A DNA stretch of 64,000 nucleotides from Ostreococcus lucimarinus (taxonomy: Eukaryota): assembly GCA_000092065.1 (NCBI GenBank), contig CP000586.1; one strand, written 5' to 3'. The notes under the pieces were generated by a model. It searched no databases. It was not told the DNA's origin and was given only the letters and a program-made list of their open reading frames with translations. This document shows, piece by piece, positions 16,564 to 32,675 of this stretch. A program made the translations under genes and the position numbers. The first letter of the stretch is position 1; the number at the start of each line of letters is the position of its first letter.

Positions 16564-18275
16564 GGCTCACGCGCTCGCGCGCGCGCGCGCGCCCGCGTCG
16601 CGAGGACGCGCGCCGGCGCGCGCGTCCGCGCCGGCGACCGCGCGACGATGCGTCGCGCGCGCGGCGCCGATCGCCGCGCGCGAAAAGGCTGCGCGCCGCG
16701 TCGCGATCGCGACGCGCGCGAGCGCGGACGCGCGCGGTGAATACGCGTCGCTCGGACAAGTGTGCGCGGGTACGATGAGAGCGCGCGATGCGAGGGCGCG
16801 AGGACGCGAACGCGCGCGGTCGGGGGGAGGGAGGACGGGACGCGGGCGAACGCGACCCTACGCGGCGAGCGGGACGAGACGCGAAGGCGAAGCGACGACG
16901 GCCGCGACGATGGAGGGAGGCCGAGGGATTCGAACGCGCGCGCGCGGTGAACGAAGCACGAGGCGATGGGCGCGCGGGGACTGACGGAGAGATTGATGCG
17001 TTTGCGTCGCGCGCGACAGTGCTCGGAAGCCAGTGGGGCGACGAGGGCAAGGGGAAATTAGTGGATATTTTGGCGCGCGAATACGACGTCGTGGCGAGAT
17101 GTCAAGGCGGTGCGAACGCGGGTCACACTATTTATGACGATGATGGGAAGAAGTACGCGCTGCATCTCGTTCCGAGCGGGATTTTGAATGAAAACGCGAC
17201 GTGCGTCGTCGGCAACGGCGTCGTGGTGCACCTTCCGGGGATGTTTGATGAGATTGACGCTTTATTAAAGGCTGGTGTGGACGCTCGAGGGCGTATGATG
17301 GTGTCTGATCGCGCGCATTTGTTGTTCGATCTTCATAAAGAAATCGATGGCTTGCGCGAGGCGGAGTTGAGTGGGAATAAAATCGGTACGACGAAGCGCG
17401 GCATCGGTCCCGCGTACGCCTCCAAAGCGACGCGCAACGGGGTTCGTTTGGGGGATATTCGAGACGCCGATAAGTTTGCGAACGCTTTGCGCACGCTTGC
17501 GGCGGACGCGGCGGCTCGATTCGATGGTTTCGAGTACGATGTCGAGGCGGAGATTGTGCGATACAGAGAAATCGCGTCGCGCATCGAGCCGTTCATCGCG
17601 GACACGGTCGAGTACGTCAACGACGCGCACAGGAACGGGAAGAAGATCTTAGTCGAGGGTGCGAACGCGACCATGCTTGATTTGGATTTCGGTACGTATC
17701 CGTTCGTGACGTCCTCCAACCCAGCGATTGGTGGCGTTAGCAATGGCCTCGGTTTGGCGCCGAGAAAGTTTGAAACCATCATCGGCGTCGCCAAGGCGTA
17801 CACCACGCGCGTCGGTGCGGGTCCGTACCCGACTGAACTTTTCGGTGACGTCGCCGATAAACTCCGCGAACTCGGCTACGAGTACGGCACCACCACCGGT
17901 CGCCCTCGTCGCATCGGTTGGTTGGACATGGTGGCGTTGAACTACGCCAACCAAATCAACGGCTTCACGCACTTGAATATCACCAAGCTCGACGTATTGA
18001 GCGAGATGGACGAGCTCAAAATCGGCGTCGCCTACGAGCTTCCTAACGGAAAGACCACGACTGCGTTCCCGGCCGACATCGCCACCTTGGAAAATGTCAA
18101 GGTGGTTTACGAAACCTTGCCCGGTTGGAAAACCGACATCGCAAACGTGCGCTCTTGGGACGACATGCCCGAAAACGCCAAAAAGTACATTCTTCGCTGC
18201 GAGGAGCTCTCGGGCGTCGAGTGTCGCTACATTGGCGTCGGCCCGGGTCGCGACGCCATGGTAATTAAACCGTAA
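16562..18275 (+). CDS. Adenylosuccinate synthetase, plastid-type. Two exons: 16562..16769 (transit peptide plus first conserved residues) and 17020..18275
   Basis: Exon 2 carries the whole AdSS domain ([37 protein letters not shown] … [14 protein letters not shown] … [13 protein letters not shown] …). Exon 1 encodes a classic Ala/Arg/Ser transit peptide ([69 protein letters not shown]). Splicing 16769^17020 (phase 1) yields …[21 protein letters not shown]. This matches the plant PURA junction …[20 protein letters not shown], as I recall it. The unspliced frame of the track ORF 16788.. instead gives an acidic, non-conserved N-terminus. Confidence 0.85.
16770..17019 (+). other. Spliceosomal intron (250 nt) of adenylosuccinate synthetase: donor GTACGA, branch GGGACTGACGG at 16977..16987, acceptor CGACAG
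   Basis: Frame change between the transit-peptide ORF (frame of 16562) and the AdSS ORF (frame of 16788). Only this donor/acceptor pair restores the conserved junction. The ACTGAC branch motif sits 37 nt upstream of the AG. Confidence 0.55.
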
Positions 18276-26777: not shown

Positions 26778-27094
26778 CGCGCGGTGTGTCGAGCGACGCG
26801 TTGTCGCGGTCGCCGCCGCCGCGCGCGCGACGCGCGGGTCGAACCCGCGTCGCGTCGCGCCTTCGCGAAGGGTCTCTCGGTCGATGGTCGTCACTGTTTA
26901 CCCATACGGATCGTGCGTTCGGAGGTGATTTCGAGCGCTTTTGCGACCTCGCGCGCTCGACGCCGCGCGCGTCGCGCCGCGCGCGCGACGCACGCGCGCG
27001 CGCGGCGACCGGTCGAGCGCGCGCGCGCGACCGCGGCGCGCGCGCGAACGCGCGCGACCGCGCGCGACGCGCGCGCGCGCGACGCGAGCGACCG

Positions 27095-30019
27095 ATGGGC
27101 GCGCGCGACGACGATTTGAAACCGAATCGACAGACGGCGTCGATCGCGTCGTTCTTCGCGACGACGCGCGCGACGACGGCGACGCGCGCGACGCGCGACG
27201 ACGGGGGGGACGATGGCGGTGGGAAGCGCGCGCGGACGGGCGAACGCGCGACGGAGGCGATCGCGGTGGACGAGGAGGAGGCGACGCGAGACGACGCGGG
27301 CGCGGCGAGACGCGACGACGCGGTGGATCTCACGATGGAGGGCGAGGAGACGATCGCGACGGCGAGCGGAGGGGGAGGGGGGGGTGGGGACGCGGCGCGC
27401 GACGGCGCGAGGGCGTCGAGGGAGGGCGAGGGATCGAGGGTGAAGGTGCATAGTTTTTTTACGAATTTCGCGAAGAGACGCAAAGCCGCGGCGACGGCGA
27501 GGGAGGGCGAGGGAGGGACGGTGAGGGAGACGCAGGCGGAATTCGTGCGGGTGAAACCGGCACCGATCGAGGAGGCGTTGGGACCGGTGCACGTGGGGTA
27601 CGTGCCGATCGCGTACGAACGGCGGACGGACGCGACGTCGACGACGGTTTCGTTTTCGACTCGCGTCGACGACGGCGAGAGACGTCCGATGACGACGCAC
27701 GCGTTCGAGTTGGTGCAACTCGGGCGAACCGCGCGAGAGGATGTGACGGCGACGCGCGGTGGCGCCGTTTCACGGCCGTCGACGTCGACGGAGTCGGAGG
27801 AGGACGCGTACTTGGCGGACGTCGCCGTCGCGGCGAATCGCGTCGACGTCGAGCTGGACGGTGTCGCGATGGCGACCGAGAGCGAGCTCGCGCGTGCGCG
27901 AGGTGAATGTAGGAATGCGTTGTTAGGGTTGAAGGAACGCGGCGGTCAAAGTCAGGCTGCGTTTCAGTGGGTCGATCGATTCAAGCCGACGCGCGGTTCC
28001 GACACCATCGGTCAAAACGCCGGCGTGGTGGAATCGCTACAGAATTGGTTTCGCGCTTGGCAGGGTCGCATTGCGATGCAGGCGAAAGGGAAAGTACCAC
28101 CATCGCCGTCGCGACCGTGCATCCCTCGTAAGGTGTACGATTCGGACGACGAAGAGTTTTGGCACAGCGACGAAGAAGAGGATGACGGCCTCGGAAGCGG
28201 CGAATCCGTGGCAAACGGCGTTTTGATTAGTGGTCCGGTGGGATGCGGTAAGACGGCCACGGTATACGCGTTGGCGAAGGAGTTTGGATTTAAAGTGCTC
28301 GAGGTGAATGCGTTGGACAGACGCAGTGGTCAAGAAGTCTTGGGGCGATTCACGGAGGCGACTCAATCAAAGCGTTTCGGTAAAAAGGCGAAAGCCGGCG
28401 CTGAGCGGCCGGCGCCGGCGAATGGTGGATTGAAGGCGTTTTTTGGTGGCGCGAGCGATGATGAAACGAAACGAAAAGAAGCGATTGCGGCGAAGACGAA
28501 AGAGGATAACGAAAAAGCAGATGCGCAATCGTTGATTTTGTTTGAAGAGATTGATATTCAACTCGCCTCGGAGCGCGGATTCATGGCGGCGCTTTCGCAA
28601 CTCGTCGAGAACACGAAGCGACCGATTGTTTTTACGTCGAATACGTCAATTTTACCAGATCTTTCGATGAATTTACCTCTGGCGCGTGTGCGATTCGACG
28701 CGCCGGGCATTCGCGAATGTGCGACGTACGCCGCGCTCGTGTCAGCTGCGGCAAAGTCGGCGCTCAGACCGAGCGACGCGACGTCAATTTCGCTCGCGTG
28801 CAAGGGAGATCTGCGTAGAACTTTGCACAACGCTCAATTTGCGTCGTTCAGCGACAGTGAAGTCCACTTTGACTCGATCGCTAGCGATCGTCACTCTACC
28901 GCGCTCATCGACGCCGCTCGCGCCGCTGTGCTCGACGGCGTCAAGCATTTGGGCGCAATACCTGTCGACGCGGCAAAAGAGCTACACGCGAGTTTAGTCG
29001 AGCGAGAGCGAGCTGATTTTGAGTCGATGATGCATGAAGTGGAATGTGGATTGATCAGGCACCAATCGCGGTTGGCGCGTTGGGACGCCATGAAAGAGGC
29101 GAAAAGAATTGAACGAATCGAGGCGAAGAAAAAGTTGCTCGGCATTCCGGCGGACAAAAATCCACTCGATCTCGTGGACTCGACCAAGAAAGAAGTAATC
29201 GTGGACGAACGCACAAAAGAAGACGAGGCCGAAGCTCGGATTCAAGCCGCGCTCGCGGTGTTTGAGCCGCGAGTCCCCTTGCCAGCCCCCGATTGGACGA
29301 CCTTCGACGCCGAGGCGCCCGCGGGCGGGTGGGATCGAGCGCGTGACGAACTCACCGCGCTAGCCGCGCTCGCGCGATCGATGTCGCAAGTTGATGTGTT
29401 GCGATCGGCGACGTGCGTCGGAATCATGGGTCCGTGTCGACGAGACGTGCCGTGGAGTAAGGAAACCATCGGCGACGCGCAAGCGTTAGAAGATTGCGCG
29501 CCGAGTGAAGATTTCTACCTAAGCAACGGACCCGCGCGACAGACGCTCGGTGGAAGCGATAATGTGAGCGTAATGGCGTCTGAATTTATAACGGTCCACT
29601 GCACGCAGCGTTACACGTCCACAAGGCTGTCGCTACGCGAATCTCATCCCGAATCCGAGCCCACGGCGTTGCAACCGATGTGCGCGCCGGCGACGCCAGT
29701 GAAGGCTTCCAAGCGTGCGCGAGGGTCTACTCGAGCTCCCTTGATCATTCAGAGCGGATCTATGCACTCGACGTGGCGCGCGCGAGTTCTCGCCGAATCC
29801 GCGGGTGGGCACACGGTAAATTCGAAGGAGACGACTGATCGATTGGGATTCTTGTCGCGAATGGTTCGCCTTCAGAGCGCGCCAAAGGCGCTCTCGTCGC
29901 CCAACTCTCGAGACTCGCGACGCCGCACCAGAAATAGACGAAAACACTTGGCATTAGCTAGCGAAACGCACGCCGATTTGCTCGACATTTCGAACTTTGG
30001 CGGTAGCAATCATATGTAG
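27095..30019 (+). CDS. ATAD5/Elg1-like RFC-like AAA+ ATPase (putative PCNA unloader) with N-terminal PIP-box-like motif
   Basis: Walker A segment GVLISGPVGCGKTATVYALAKEFGFKVLEVNALDRRSG. Walker B-like LILFEEIDIQ. Sensor region RPIVFTSN. Long acidic/basic disordered N-terminus starting MGARDDDLKPNRQTASIASFF. The part of the track ORF upstream of 27095 is an Arg-rich shadow. The C-terminal 150 aa are of low quality, and the stop is only 18 nt from the next gene's ATG, so the 3' end is uncertain. Confidence 0.6.
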   Translation: MGARDDDLKPNRQTASIASFFATTRATTATRATRDDGGDDGGGKRARTGERATEAIAVDEEEATRDDAGAARRDDAVDLTMEGEETIATASGGGGGGGDAARDGARASREGEGSRVKVHSFFTNFAKRRKAAATAREGEGGTVRETQAEFVRVKPAPIEEALGPVHVGYVPIAYERRTDATSTTVSFSTRVDDGERRPMTTHAFELVQLGRTAREDVTATRGGAVSRPSTSTESEEDAYLADVAVAANRVDVELDGVAMATESELARARGECRNALLGLKERGGQSQAAFQWVDRFKPTRGSDTIGQNAGVVESLQNWFRAWQGRIAMQAKGKVPPSPSRPCIPRKVYDSDDEEFWHSDEEEDDGLGSGESVANGVLISGPVGCGKTATVYALAKEFGFKVLEVNALDRRSGQEVLGRFTEATQSKRFGKKAKAGAERPAPANGGLKAFFGGASDDETKRKEAIAAKTKEDNEKADAQSLILFEEIDIQLASERGFMAALSQLVENTKRPIVFTSNTSILPDLSMNLPLARVRFDAPGIRECATYAALVSAAAKSALRPSDATSISLACKGDLRRTLHNAQFASFSDSEVHFDSIASDRHSTALIDAARAAVLDGVKHLGAIPVDAAKELHASLVERERADFESMMHEVECGLIRHQSRLARWDAMKEAKRIERIEAKKKLLGIPADKNPLDLVDSTKKEVIVDERTKEDEAEARIQAALAVFEPRVPLPAPDWTTFDAEAPAGGWDRARDELTALAALARSMSQVDVLRSATCVGIMGPCRRDVPWSKETIGDAQALEDCAPSEDFYLSNGPARQTLGGSDNVSVMASEFITVHCTQRYTSTRLSLRESHPESEPTALQPMCAPATPVKASKRARGSTRAPLIIQSGSMHSTWRARVLAESAGGHTVNSKETTDRLGFLSRMVRLQSAPKALSSPNSRDSRRRTRNRRKHLALASETHADLLDISNFGGSNHM

Positions 30020-30037: not shown

Positions 30038-31031
30038 ATGAAATCAGAAAGTCAACCGATGTCGGCGCCGCACTTCGAGGCGCACATGACGTTCGAGCTC
30101 ACGCCCCGCGCGCTCAAACGCGCGTGCTTAGATCAAAACGGGTGCGTCAAACGAATGCGCGGCTGCGACCCTTCGAAATTCGCGCACGCGAGCCGCGCGA
30201 ATGCCACCGCTGAACGCTCTCGTTTGACTCGCGCGCAGATATTCCACTCCAGAGCTCAACGAGGTGCTCTACCTTCATCACAGAGGCATCGTCGAGCTGC
30301 GGCACTTCGAGCCGTATTCAAATTTACGGTGCTTGCACCTCGAGTGCAACGCCATATCTTCGCTCGACGGTTTGCGAGCTTTGACCGAGCTCTCGCAGCT
30401 GTGCGTCGACGGCAACGCGTTGCGCGACTTGCGCGGCGTCGAACGCTTGACAAAACTTCGGCATCTCAACGCGAACGATAACGTGATCGAGACCTTGGAA
30501 CACGCGCGCGGCCACGGGGCGTTAGAAACGCTGTGCGTGCGCGGGAACCGTCTTCGAGACGTGGGCAAGGCGTTGGAGCCGCTGCGAGCGTGCGCGGCGC
30601 TGCGATCGCTCGACGTCTCTCGCAACGACATCGACATCGACGCGGCCACGGACGACGACGCCCGCCGAGGCTTGCTCGAGGCGTTATCACACGTCTCAAA
30701 CGTCGAACTGCTGTATTTCGCCGACGGTAACCCCGCGTCGCGCTCGACCGAGGCCTATCGCGCCGTCGTCGTCGAAGCCCTCCCTCGCCTCCGCTGGCTC
30801 GACGACGCGCCCGTCGACGCCACCTCCCGCCGACTCGCCGCCGCTCGCCTCCTCGACGGCGTTCGAGGCGAAATCCAAGCCCAACGAGACGTCGCCGTCG
30901 AGCGTCGTCGCCGCGCCGACGCCGAGCACGCCGCCTTCCCCGTCGCGTGCGCCGCCGTCGCGCGCGCCCGCCGCGCGCGTCCCGTCGCCGACGTCGACGC
31001 CCTCGACGCCCTCGACGCCCATCTCGCGTGA
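30038..31031 (+). CDS. Dynein axonemal assembly factor 1 (DNAAF1/LRRC50/ODA7)-like leucine-rich-repeat protein. Two exons: 30038..30141 and 30239..31031
   Basis: Spliced product …RACLDQNGYSTPELNEVLYLHHRGIVELRHFEPYSNLRCLHLECNAISSLDGL… aligns with human DNAAF1 …[46 protein letters not shown]…, as I recall it. LRRs continue (LSQLCVDGNALRDL, LRHLNANDNVIETL, LETLCVRGNRLRDV, LRSLDVSRNDIDID) with an LRR-cap-like LLYFADGNPASR. Confidence 0.7.
30142..30238 (+). other. Spliceosomal intron (97 nt) of DNAAF1-like gene: donor GTGCGT, branch-like CTGAAC/TTGACTC, acceptor GCGCGCAG
   Basis: Exon 1 is in the frame of track ORF 30038..30481 and exon 2 in the frame of 30264..31031. Only the 30141^30239 junction (phase 2) recreates the conserved YxTPxLNxxLYLH block. 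Confidence 0.7.
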
Positions 31032-31119
31032 CCGCGCGCGCCGCCTCATTTTTCCTCGCGCGTCCCTCGCGCGTCGCGCCCCACCGCCGTCGCGCGTTCC
31101 TCCAATCGTCGAAATCATC

Positions 31120-31154
31120 AAATCTCAAATCTCAAATCTCAAATCTCAAATCTC
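31120..31154. repeat. Microsatellite (AAATCTC)x5 in the DNAAF1–PROPPIN intergenic spacer
   Basis: Direct reading: aaatctcaaatctcaaatctcaaatctcaaatctc. Confidence 0.9.
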
Positions 31155-31211
31155 AAATCCAAAAGTCGTTACGCATCCGCGTCCGAGCCGTCGTTCGCAC
31201 TCACCGCCGCG

Positions 31212-32675
31212 ATGCCCGCCGTCGCCGTCAACGCCGCGTCGCACAACCAGGACTTCACGTACGTCGCCCTGGCGACGTCTCGCGGGTACGTCATCCACAG
31301 CACGCTCGACGGCCAGCGGTACCACGGCGACGACGCGCTCGGCGGTTTAAAACTCGTCGAGATGCTCTTCACGTCGTCGCTGTTGTGCGTCGTCGGCGAC
31401 GGCGACAGCGCGCGCATGAGCCCGAGACGGGTGAAAATACTCGACGCGCGATGCCGACGCGTGCTGGGGGAGATCGCGTGCGCGAGCACGGTGCTGGCGG
31501 TGCGATTGAACCGAGCGAGGGTGATCGCGCGAGAGCGAACGCGGTGCACGATATACGAATTGGGGACGCTGGCGAGACAACAGACGATCGATACGGTGGC
31601 GTGCGAACGAGGATTGGTGGCGCTGAGCGCGGATGCGGAGAGCTCGGTGCTGGCGTTCGCGGGAAGCGCGAGCGAGGGGAAGGTGGTGGTGCACGATGCG
31701 TTGAATTTGTGCGAGATTTGCGAGGTGCGAGCGCACCGAACGCCGCTGGCGGCGTTGGCGTTGAACGCGGATGGGACGATGTTGGCCACGGCGAGCGTGA
31801 AAGGAACGGTGATTCGAGTGACGGCGCTGCCGAGTGGGACGAAGATGTGGAGTTTTCGACGAGGGGCGACGAGTTCGGTGATACAGAGTTTGAATTTTGG
31901 GGCGACGGCGTTTCAACCGCCGCTGTTGTGCGTTTCGAGCGATAAAGGAACGGCGCACGTGTTCGCGATTGAGGGCGAACCGAAGGAGTGCGAATCGTTC
32001 GAGGATCGCGTCGGAGAGACCATCGATGGTGCGCGCGAGACGTCTAACGGGGAAAGTGCGGACGATGTCGCGCCAACAGTGCTCTCGACGGCGGCGACGA
32101 CGGTTTCGAACGCGCTCGCGAAGTCGCGCGCGGGCGTCTTTGGCAAGCTTGCCAACGCCGCTGGGGCCACTGTGCGAGGCATATCGAGCCGTGTGAAACC
32201 TGTTAAAATGTTTGCCGCCGCGCGAAACGCCATGGAACCATCTCGCGCGATCGCGACGGTGAAACTTCCGCACACTTCTTCCACGAAGTGGTCGCTGTGC
32301 GCGCTGCAACCGACGCCGGGCACCGCGGCGGATAAGTGGGCGCCACCCTCGCTCGATTCTTCCCAGCCCGCGCGTCAGCTCGAGGCGCAAGTCTCAGTCG
32401 TGACATCAGACGCTGTTTTTTACGATTACAACGTCCGTCTGACCTCAGATCGCGCTGGATTCTTCTCTCGCGGCGAGGAAGCCGTCGCGCGACTCGAGCG
32501 CGAGTGCAAACTCATCGACGAGACGGACTCGTTCGGCACTTCATCCACCGTCGGTGATTTACCGTCCAACGGACGGTGGATCGAAAGCGCCATCGCCGCC
32601 GGTTCAAATCCCGAGTCGGCGCAGGAGTTGCGCACGAACGTCAGCGAGTCCATGTCGCAGTCCATGTTCGGCTGA
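31212..32675 (+). CDS. PROPPIN (WD40 beta-propeller, WIPI/Hsv2/Atg18-family paralog) with FRRG phosphoinositide-binding motif
   Basis: MLATASVKGTVIRVTALPSGTKMWSFRRGATSSVIQSLNF carries the (L/F)RRG motif in the usual blade context. Multiple WD-like blades upstream. Serine-rich C-terminal extension. Confidence 0.75.
   Translation: MPAVAVNAASHNQDFTYVALATSRGYVIHSTLDGQRYHGDDALGGLKLVEMLFTSSLLCVVGDGDSARMSPRRVKILDARCRRVLGEIACASTVLAVRLNRARVIARERTRCTIYELGTLARQQTIDTVACERGLVALSADAESSVLAFAGSASEGKVVVHDALNLCEICEVRAHRTPLAALALNADGTMLATASVKGTVIRVTALPSGTKMWSFRRGATSSVIQSLNFGATAFQPPLLCVSSDKGTAHVFAIEGEPKECESFEDRVGETIDGARETSNGESADDVAPTVLSTAATTVSNALAKSRAGVFGKLANAAGATVRGISSRVKPVKMFAAARNAMEPSRAIATVKLPHTSSTKWSLCALQPTPGTAADKWAPPSLDSSQPARQLEAQVSVVTSDAVFYDYNVRLTSDRAGFFSRGEEAVARLERECKLIDETDSFGTSSTVGDLPSNGRWIESAIAAGSNPESAQELRTNVSESMSQSMFG

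Follow-up and report, generated by a model that had tools for sequence, protein, structure and literature searches.

Ostreococcus is the textbook exception among the organisms that encode axonemal dynein, and Wickstead and Gull are said to have called its retention of the inner-arm dynein I1/f “a most surprising result”. Ostreococcus lucimarinus builds no axoneme, but it keeps IAD-1alpha, IAD-1beta and IC138 of the I1/f inner arm (PMC2239267), and WDR92 is retained in the genus as well (PMC4831875, PMC6727741). Outer-arm and single-headed inner-arm dyneins are absent from O. lucimarinus (PMC2239267, PMC6727741), and cytoplasmic dynein 1 and the dynein of intraflagellar transport are absent from Ostreococcus (PMC2239267). 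WDR92 co-precipitates DNAAF1/ODA7, inner-arm heavy chains and RuvBL1, RuvBL1/2 bind DNAAF1, and WDR92 and DNAAF1 co-purify in Chlamydomonas and Drosophila (PMC6940843). No listing of DNAAF1/ODA7 for Ostreococcus was found in the literature that we searched. Here we describe a gene in a 64,000-nucleotide (nt) stretch of O. lucimarinus DNA (assembly GCA_000092065.1, contig CP000586.1; hereafter the window), which we read, with a probability of about 0.75, as a two-exon gene (30086-30141 and 30239-31031) for a fast-evolving member of the DNAAF1/ODA7/LRRC50 family with 282 amino acids (aa), which has lost its C-terminal tail. The figure refers to the reading as a whole, from the gene structure, the family, the positional link, the identity of the organism and the purifying selection, which are demonstrated, through to the function, which we infer.

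Gene structure and start codon

On the plus strand, an open reading frame (ORF) starting from the ATG at 30038 has a second in-frame ATG at 30086 and reads ...MTFELTPRALKRACLDQNG, followed by unrelated residues; unspliced, this frame ends at the stop 30479-30481. Leucine-rich repeats (LRRs) are encoded by another ORF, in a different frame, which extends from 30264 to the TGA at 31029-31031. When 30142-30238 is removed, GG|A makes a Gly codon and the product reads ...ACLDQNG-YSTPELNEVLYLHH... (...ACLDQNG-YSTPELNEVLYLHHRG...). The removed interval, which at 97 nt is not divisible by three, has the donor GTGCGT (30142-30147), a branch-like TTGAC at 30224-30228, 10 nt before the AG, and the acceptor CGCGCAG with its AG at 30237-30238. 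There are 11 different GT..AG pairs in this stretch that restore an open frame, so that a single sequence is insufficient to call the intron and the comparative evidence decides.

Homologues of the gene at 50-82% identity are carried by metagenome contigs (the related loci), whose DNA was compared with the window. The intron was followed in seven loci, namely the window, L008, L006, L007, L005, L002 and L004, where the interval is 97, 97, 103, 86, 124, 93 and 135 nt long, respectively. It turned out that all seven have a GT-AG interval at the identical phase-2 site within a Gly codon, flanked by M(A/T)F..TP(R/K)A..RAC..Q.G on one side and (Y/F)(A/S)(T/S/A)PELN..LYLHH on the other. The donor takes the form GT(G/A/T)CG(C/T) in each of them, and a TTGAC or CTGAC branch-like motif is found in every one, 10-19 nt before the AG in six and 27 nt before it in L005. 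The length modulo three takes the values 0, 1 or 2 and is mostly not 0; in two lineages the interval is divisible by three and contains no stop, and prokaryote-style gene callers read through it (P0011, P0014, also P0309). L008, the closest relative, matches the window in 95% of nucleotides in exon 1 and in 90% where exon 2 begins, against 60% across the intron. Besides, intron-less homologues run through the predicted junction uninterrupted, for instance P0423 with ‘VENDGYAHAPELN’ and P0440 with ‘VENNGYRNPVLN’. The ends, the branch motif, the shared position and phase, the faster divergence and the free length are those of a U2-type spliceosomal intron, and on this comparison of sequences we regard 30142-30238 as an established intron, with exactly the coordinates and the junction that a preliminary description, made from the letters of the window, had given it.

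The opposite explanation is a gene without an intron, consisting entirely of the annotated single-exon ORF (30264-31031, or a part of it from an internal start), with an upstream peptide that is conserved by coincidence or belongs to a small upstream ORF. NCBI does model one exon, labeled ‘partial’, and the abundance of frame-restoring GT-AG pairs speaks on the same side. However, the NCBI model is itself flagged as incomplete, the exon-1 peptide is kept in seven lineages with mainly synonymous changes while the intron diverges and varies in length, the intron-less homologues cross the junction in frame and begin at the same Met, and the 27 residues absent from the NCBI model are worth 35.6 bits of score on the family profile described below. 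A single-exon gene is thus extremely improbable.

The start codon could be placed by the same comparison. The Met of MTFEL (MTFELTPRAL..., ATG 30086) is kept in every lineage compared, and the exon-1 peptide of the seven loci follows the common pattern M(A/T)F(E/V)(L/I/M/C)TP(R/K)A(L/I).RAC(L/V)(D/E)Q.G; in L006 a stop codon lies 7 codons 5' of this Met. Green-lineage homologues share Met1 as well (‘MAFELTNRSL’ in Klebsormidium and ‘MAFEITPKSL’ in Bryopsis), and an alignment of the exon-1 peptide to the DNAAF1 homologue of Klebsormidium, ‘MAFELTNRSLRRHC’, begins at Met1. The ATG at 30038 was dropped as the conserved initiator. The 48 nt that begin with it are conserved in L008 only, where six codons differ and five of these changes are non-synonymous; no counterpart was found in the more distant of the related loci, and a protein started at 30038 scores 208.5 bits on the family profile, against 208.8 bits for a start at 30086, so the extension contributes nothing. 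Judged by these changes, 30038-30085 is probably 5' untranslated region, while it may also be a 16-aa N-terminal extension of the protein.

The exon-2 ORF (30264-31028) is identical in 255 of 255 residues to XP_001418154.1/ABO96447.1 (P0291), which NCBI lists as ‘predicted protein, partial [Ostreococcus lucimarinus CCE9901]’, with 255 aa from a single exon. Missing from this entry are exon 1 and eight codons at the beginning of exon 2, 27 N-terminal residues in all, and the present structure corrects the public model by adding them. At the other end, the next gene begins at 31212, 180 nt past the stop, so that no space is left for further exons.

Assignment to the DNAAF1 family

Two profiles were used for the assignment. 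Profile A2 was made of Ostreococcus-type proteins and was run in an exhaustive search of 1.84 billion representatives, while profile A3 (the family profile, 253 positions) was made of 16 homologues outside the Ostreococcus group, none of them Ostreococcus-type. Since the raw rankings of both are led by giant multi-repeat LRR proteins, whose scores are summed over many stretches, only single-stretch, end-to-end matches are informative. A word-indexed homologue search was saturated by LRR words and gave close metagenome relatives only.

The best single-stretch matches of A2 begin at profile positions 1-5 and at their own N-termini. Of those that are named, A0A1Y1IR77 of Klebsormidium and F2UH28 of Salpingoeca are both entered in UniRef as ‘Dynein assembly factor 1, axonemal homolog’, and a JGI protein is called ‘dynein assembly factor 1’. 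The sources of the unnamed matches, among them Bryopsis, the liverwort Calypogeia and Entosiphon, have flagellate stages. IMG automatic annotation also names members of the Ostreococcus-type cluster ‘dynein assembly factor 1’. With BLASTP, the Klebsormidium protein shares 38% identity over 276 aa, Met1 to Met1. In the other direction, A3 matches the spliced protein in a single domain of 208.8 bits that runs from position 2 to position 241 of the 253 in the profile. The score falls to 190.6 bits without exon 1, which is therefore worth 18.2 bits, and to 173.2 bits for the NCBI partial model. This match spans both of the non-repeat parts that mark the family, the N-terminal segment across the intron and the post-cap helix ‘DDAPVDATSRRLAAA...’.

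A different explanation would be a generic SDS22-like LRR protein, for instance a regulator of the phosphatase PP1, whose likeness to DNAAF1 reflects the general similarity of 22-residue LRRs. In its favor, Pfam reports only the generic families LRR_4, LRR_8 and LRR_9, and the searches of PDB by sequence and by fold (Foldseek) return SDS22/PPP1R7, internalins and DRC3, with SDS22 and DRC3 as the best folds. To our knowledge, however, there is no DNAAF1 structure in PDB and no DNAAF1-specific Pfam family, so that these searches do not discriminate and cannot settle the assignment. Against the solved LRR proteins, the best single stretch of A3 reaches 91.5 bits for PPP1R7 (positions 26-151), 69.8 bits for Roco and about 104 bits for DRC3, whereas the O. 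lucimarinus protein is matched end to end, non-repeat parts included. Moreover, it has six repeats, while PPP1R7 has more, three stretches of it in succession being matched by the six-repeat profile, and the same neighbour gene stands beside a canonical DNAAF1 elsewhere (see the next section). Neighbor-joining trees set the DNAAF1-like proteins, including the Ostreococcus group, apart from other LRR-plus-cap proteins with bootstraps of 92-100%. A generic SDS22-like protein is accordingly very improbable, and membership of the DNAAF1/ODA7/LRRC50 family, which the preliminary description had proposed, is supported by the end-to-end profile match, the names of the best full-length matches and the trees.

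Gene neighbourhood

The gene lies between an ATAD5-like gene and a PROPPIN gene (Table 1), and the order AAA - LRR - PROPPIN - DnaJ is retained in L002, L007, L009 and L013. The neighbouring genes are themselves similar to those of the window: in the L002/L013 lineage spermidine synthase is 91% and PROPPIN 77% identical, and over L002, L013 and L007 PROPPIN is 70-77% identical. From these identities, L002, L013 and L007 probably come from other Ostreococcus or Bathycoccaceae lineages.

A link to a canonical family member is given by L012 (1157-5567), a marine metagenome contig with 71% GC. It carries P0423, a canonical intron-less DNAAF1 of 586 aa, and an ATAD5-like orthologue, which stand tail to tail and 164 nt apart. 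This ATAD5-like protein is colinear with residues 391-1072 of the one in the window, and the orientation is inverted, with the gene on the opposite strand. Because the chance adjacency of two specified genes among several thousand is unlikely, positional orthology with a local inversion is favoured; that is, gene order points to the Ostreococcus-type gene as the positional orthologue of canonical DNAAF1.

The boundary with the upstream gene had been questioned in the preliminary description, which started the LRR gene at 30038 and suspected that one of the two limits was wrong. Its start has indeed been replaced by 30086. The upstream stop at 30017-30019 is correct, since the C-terminal ...ADLLDISNFGG..* with its stop is kept in five of six related lineages and is recognisable in the sixth (L007), and the two genes are genuinely 66 nt apart, compared with 110 nt in L002.

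Protein architecture and loss of the C-terminal tail

The coordinates of the features are collected in Table 1. In the AlphaFold2 (AF2) model, six beta-strand turns and the cap helices are seen, the confidence score pLDDT is 75-92 in the LRR core, and a helix is predicted over residues 213-265. Three conserved parts of the family can be recognised in the alignment to the DNAAF1 profile. The N-terminal segment (..TP..LK..C...KLY.TPELNDVLYLH.KGF) is present as MTFELTPRALKRACLDQNGYSTPELNEVLYLHHRGI at profile positions 2-36 with high posterior probability, the LRR cap (GNP...YR......P.L..LD) as ‘DGNPASRSTEAYRAVVVEALPRLRWLDD’, and the post-cap helix (DDRPVF..ERRLAEAW.RGG..E..ER) as ‘DDAPVDATSRRLAAARLLDGVRGEIQAQRDVAVERRRR’, aligned through profile position 241; the profile consensus in the post-cap region is ‘DdrPvfekerrlaeAwarGg...’.

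Table 1. Features of the DNAAF1-like locus and its neighbours in the window
Feature	Coordinates	Strand	Evidence and remarks
Exon 1, DNAAF1-like gene	30086..30141	+	ATG 30086, 18 codons and the first two bases of Gly19; encodes MTFELTPRALKRACLDQN(G)
Intron, GT-AG, phase 2	30142..30238	+	97 nt; same position and phase in 7 loci
Exon 2	30239..31031	+	TGA stop 31029-31031
Six SDS22-type LRRs and LRR cap	30258..30812	+	residues ~26-210; Pfam LRR_4, LRR_8, LRR_9; AF2 model
Post-cap helix (DDAPVDATSRRLAAARLL...ERRRR...AFP)	30819..30977	+	aligned to DNAAF1 profile positions 195-241
In-frame stretch from upstream ATG	30038..30085	+	85% identity to L008, 0 bits added to family profile
Upstream AAA+/Rad17-type (ATAD5/Elg1-like) gene	26786..30019	+	Pfam AAA, Rad17 P-loop; conserved stop 30017-30019
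Downstream PROPPIN (WIPI/Atg18-type) gene	31212..32675	+	Pfam PROPPIN; 3' limit of locus

The product, with its 282 aa, is much shorter than the complete canonical homologues (332-1172 aa), as the preliminary description had pointed out. A long acidic or low-complexity C-terminal tail is typical of the DNAAF1 family and not strictly defining, and here it is truly absent, because the next gene begins 180 nt after the stop.

Two observations on C-termini are added. In the canonical proteins, 11 of 17 (P0423, P0431, P0439, P0440, P0464, P0465, P0470, P0476, P0500, P0503 and P0504) have an acidic end ...(E/D)-x-(I/L/M/V)-D-COOH, which resembles the EEVD tail of Hsp70/Hsp90 that is bound by tetratricopeptide repeat (TPR) proteins; in the Ostreococcus-type proteins the entire tail is absent. 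The genes of L002 (6001-6789) and L013 (2991-3662; P0011, P0012, P0015) are shorter still, with about 223-231 aa after splicing, and their protein stops soon after the LRR cap, without the post-cap helix and the AFP motif.

Other observations concern the flanks. The 5' third of the ATAD5-like ORF (26786-27700) is Arg/Ala-rich and of low complexity, with equally long overlapping ORFs on both strands, and homology of the ATAD5-like protein begins near residue 220, which makes 26786 a putative start of that gene. In the 180-nt spacer before the PROPPIN start, a 7-nt microsatellite (AAATCTC) is repeated 7.4 times at 31112-31163.

Selection and proposed function

At least seven diverged lineages, with synonymous sites near saturation (synonymous divergence, dS, up to ~1-1.7), have preserved an undamaged ORF together with its splice sites and branch motif, and the pairwise ratio of non-synonymous to synonymous change (dN/dS) is 0.24-0.40. 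Read from these comparisons, the gene is under purifying selection, but a relaxed one. Within the protein, conservation is highest in the N-terminal motif and on the LRR surface. A decaying, functionless remnant of a flagellar gene set might be suspected in a host without a flagellum, where the protein is truncated and evolves fast. An intact ORF and intact splicing signals across lineages with saturated synonymous change, together with dN/dS well below 1, make such a remnant hardly credible.

As for what the gene would be kept for, the short DNAAF1 may be a cytoplasmic LRR adaptor that aids chaperone machinery of the R2TP/HSP90 type. Together with it, this machinery would fold and assemble dynein heavy chains, as with DNAAF1 elsewhere, and the client in Ostreococcus would be the retained I1/f dynein. 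The role of assembly adaptor is proposed by analogy, because the I1/f heavy chains, IC138 and WDR92 are retained, WDR92 co-purifies with DNAAF1, and DNAAF1 binds RuvBL1/2; we would give it an even chance.

Several points weigh against the favoured reading. ODA7 is best known for the assembly of outer arms, and Ostreococcus has none. The C-terminal tail is entirely missing from the 282-aa protein, and in the post-cap helix RRLA is retained while EAW.RGG is degenerate. A housekeeping chaperone would be expected to be under tighter constraint than a dN/dS of 0.24-0.40 indicates, and no transcriptome-source protein (MMETSP or EukProt) was among the matches for the Ostreococcus-type gene. In the neighbor-joining tree of uncorrected distances, the Ostreococcus group has a long branch and comes out as the sister of every other DNAAF1 sequence; gamma-corrected distances nest it near P0423, P0440 and the green lineage, but the support is weak (30-38%). 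A position outside all other DNAAF1 was judged to be a long-branch effect, since the corrected distances nest the group inside. The trees thus support membership of the family strongly and the place within it weakly.

Some of the same points would fit a descendant of DNAAF1 that, once the flagellum had gone, took on a new role unrelated to dynein, such as that of a general LRR adaptor or of a module binding phosphatases or chaperones. The long branch and the fast evolution, the dN/dS values, the lost tail with the degenerate post-cap motif, and the lack of the post-cap helix in the L002/L013 lineage could all be expected of it. On the other hand, a matching client (the I1/f heavy chains and IC138) and the partner WDR92 are kept in the organism (PMC2239267, PMC6727741), and conservation is strongest in the N-terminal motif and over the LRR surface. 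A new role is therefore unlikely, and an assembly factor for the retained dynein is preferred.

A further step, which we offer tentatively and with the odds rather against it, is that the I1/f dynein is the sole dynein of Ostreococcus and is cytoplasmic, and that the tail-less DNAAF1 and WDR92 would form a minimal dedicated assembly line for a repurposed motor. As a rarer variant, the module may serve a cryptic flagellated (gamete) stage that has never been observed. 

To the unexplained retention of I1/f in an alga without cilia, the gene adds a putative LRR assembly factor as a third kind of component, after the motor subunits and WDR92. If selection maintains an assembly factor, the dynein is probably not only encoded but also folded and in use. 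O. tauri permits gene targeting by homologous recombination, and the short DNAAF1 offers a small, tractable handle on axonemal dynein outside an axoneme.

The host and the motility marker

The presence of DNAAF1 had been taken in the preliminary description to imply a flagellated organism, and the source to be motile and Micromonas-like rather than Ostreococcus-like. Neither conclusion survives. The window is O. lucimarinus CCE9901, as shown by the 255 of 255 residues shared with XP_001418154.1 and by the adenylosuccinate synthetase ORF (16788-18275), which is identical in 419 of 422 residues to XP_001418148.1 of this strain and 85% identical to the protein of O. tauri, and which falls in one 90% cluster with the O. 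tauri and O. lucimarinus proteins. The host genus builds no axoneme, yet it keeps inner-arm dynein parts. A dynein assembly factor is therefore unusable as a motility marker; here, such reasoning gave the wrong organism.

The synthetase gene itself deserves a remark. Its ORF is open throughout in the window, yet XP_001418148.1 splices out about 200 in-frame nt (GTCGGG...GCGACAG) and joins directly to VLGSQWG, so that one of the two N-termini must be wrong. In a flagellate-like relative represented by L019-L021 (synthetase 76% identical), the synthetase adjoins a 4171-aa dynein heavy chain and a SHIPPO-repeat gene, and the gene order around it differs from that of the window.

Comparison with known systems

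Among the systems described, DRC3/LRRC48 (subunit 3 of the nexin-dynein regulatory complex) also has an N-terminal SDS22-type LRR domain, a cap and then a helix, and it is the top single-stretch match to the DNAAF1 profile among solved proteins, at half of the Ostreococcus score. It is, however, a structural protein of the axoneme with 520-575 aa and a long coiled coil, and nothing in it is aligned to the N-terminal segment of the profile. SDS22/PPP1R7 shares the 22-residue type of LRR and the LRR cap and is the best solved-structure match. Its family is defined by about 11-12 LRRs, which make up nearly the whole protein, whereas six repeats are found here; PPP1R7 matches the O. lucimarinus protein in partial stretches that overlap (72 bits in 3), and neither the N-terminal segment nor the post-cap helix of DNAAF1 has an aligned counterpart in PPP1R7.

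With DNAAF1/ODA7/LRRC50, the N-terminal segment (..TP..L...C.....Y.TPELN..LYLH.(K/R)G), the six LRRs, the cap and the post-cap helix align end to end, a canonical member lies in the same genomic neighbourhood, and the best named matches belong to this family. The Ostreococcus protein differs in being tail-less, without the ...E-(I/L/M/V)-D end of 11 of 17 homologues, in its degenerate ‘EAW.RGG’ and its long branch, and in a host that has neither a cilium nor outer dynein arms. The retained I1/f module (IAD-1alpha, IAD-1beta, IC138, WDR92) is a parallel in biology, being a set of axonemal-dynein-specific parts in the same organism without an axoneme; it differs in that the link of DNAAF1 to the module is proposed here and did not come from the literature searched. 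In conclusion, what is new at this locus is a divergent, tail-less member of a known family in a context already known to be odd, together with a correction of its gene model.

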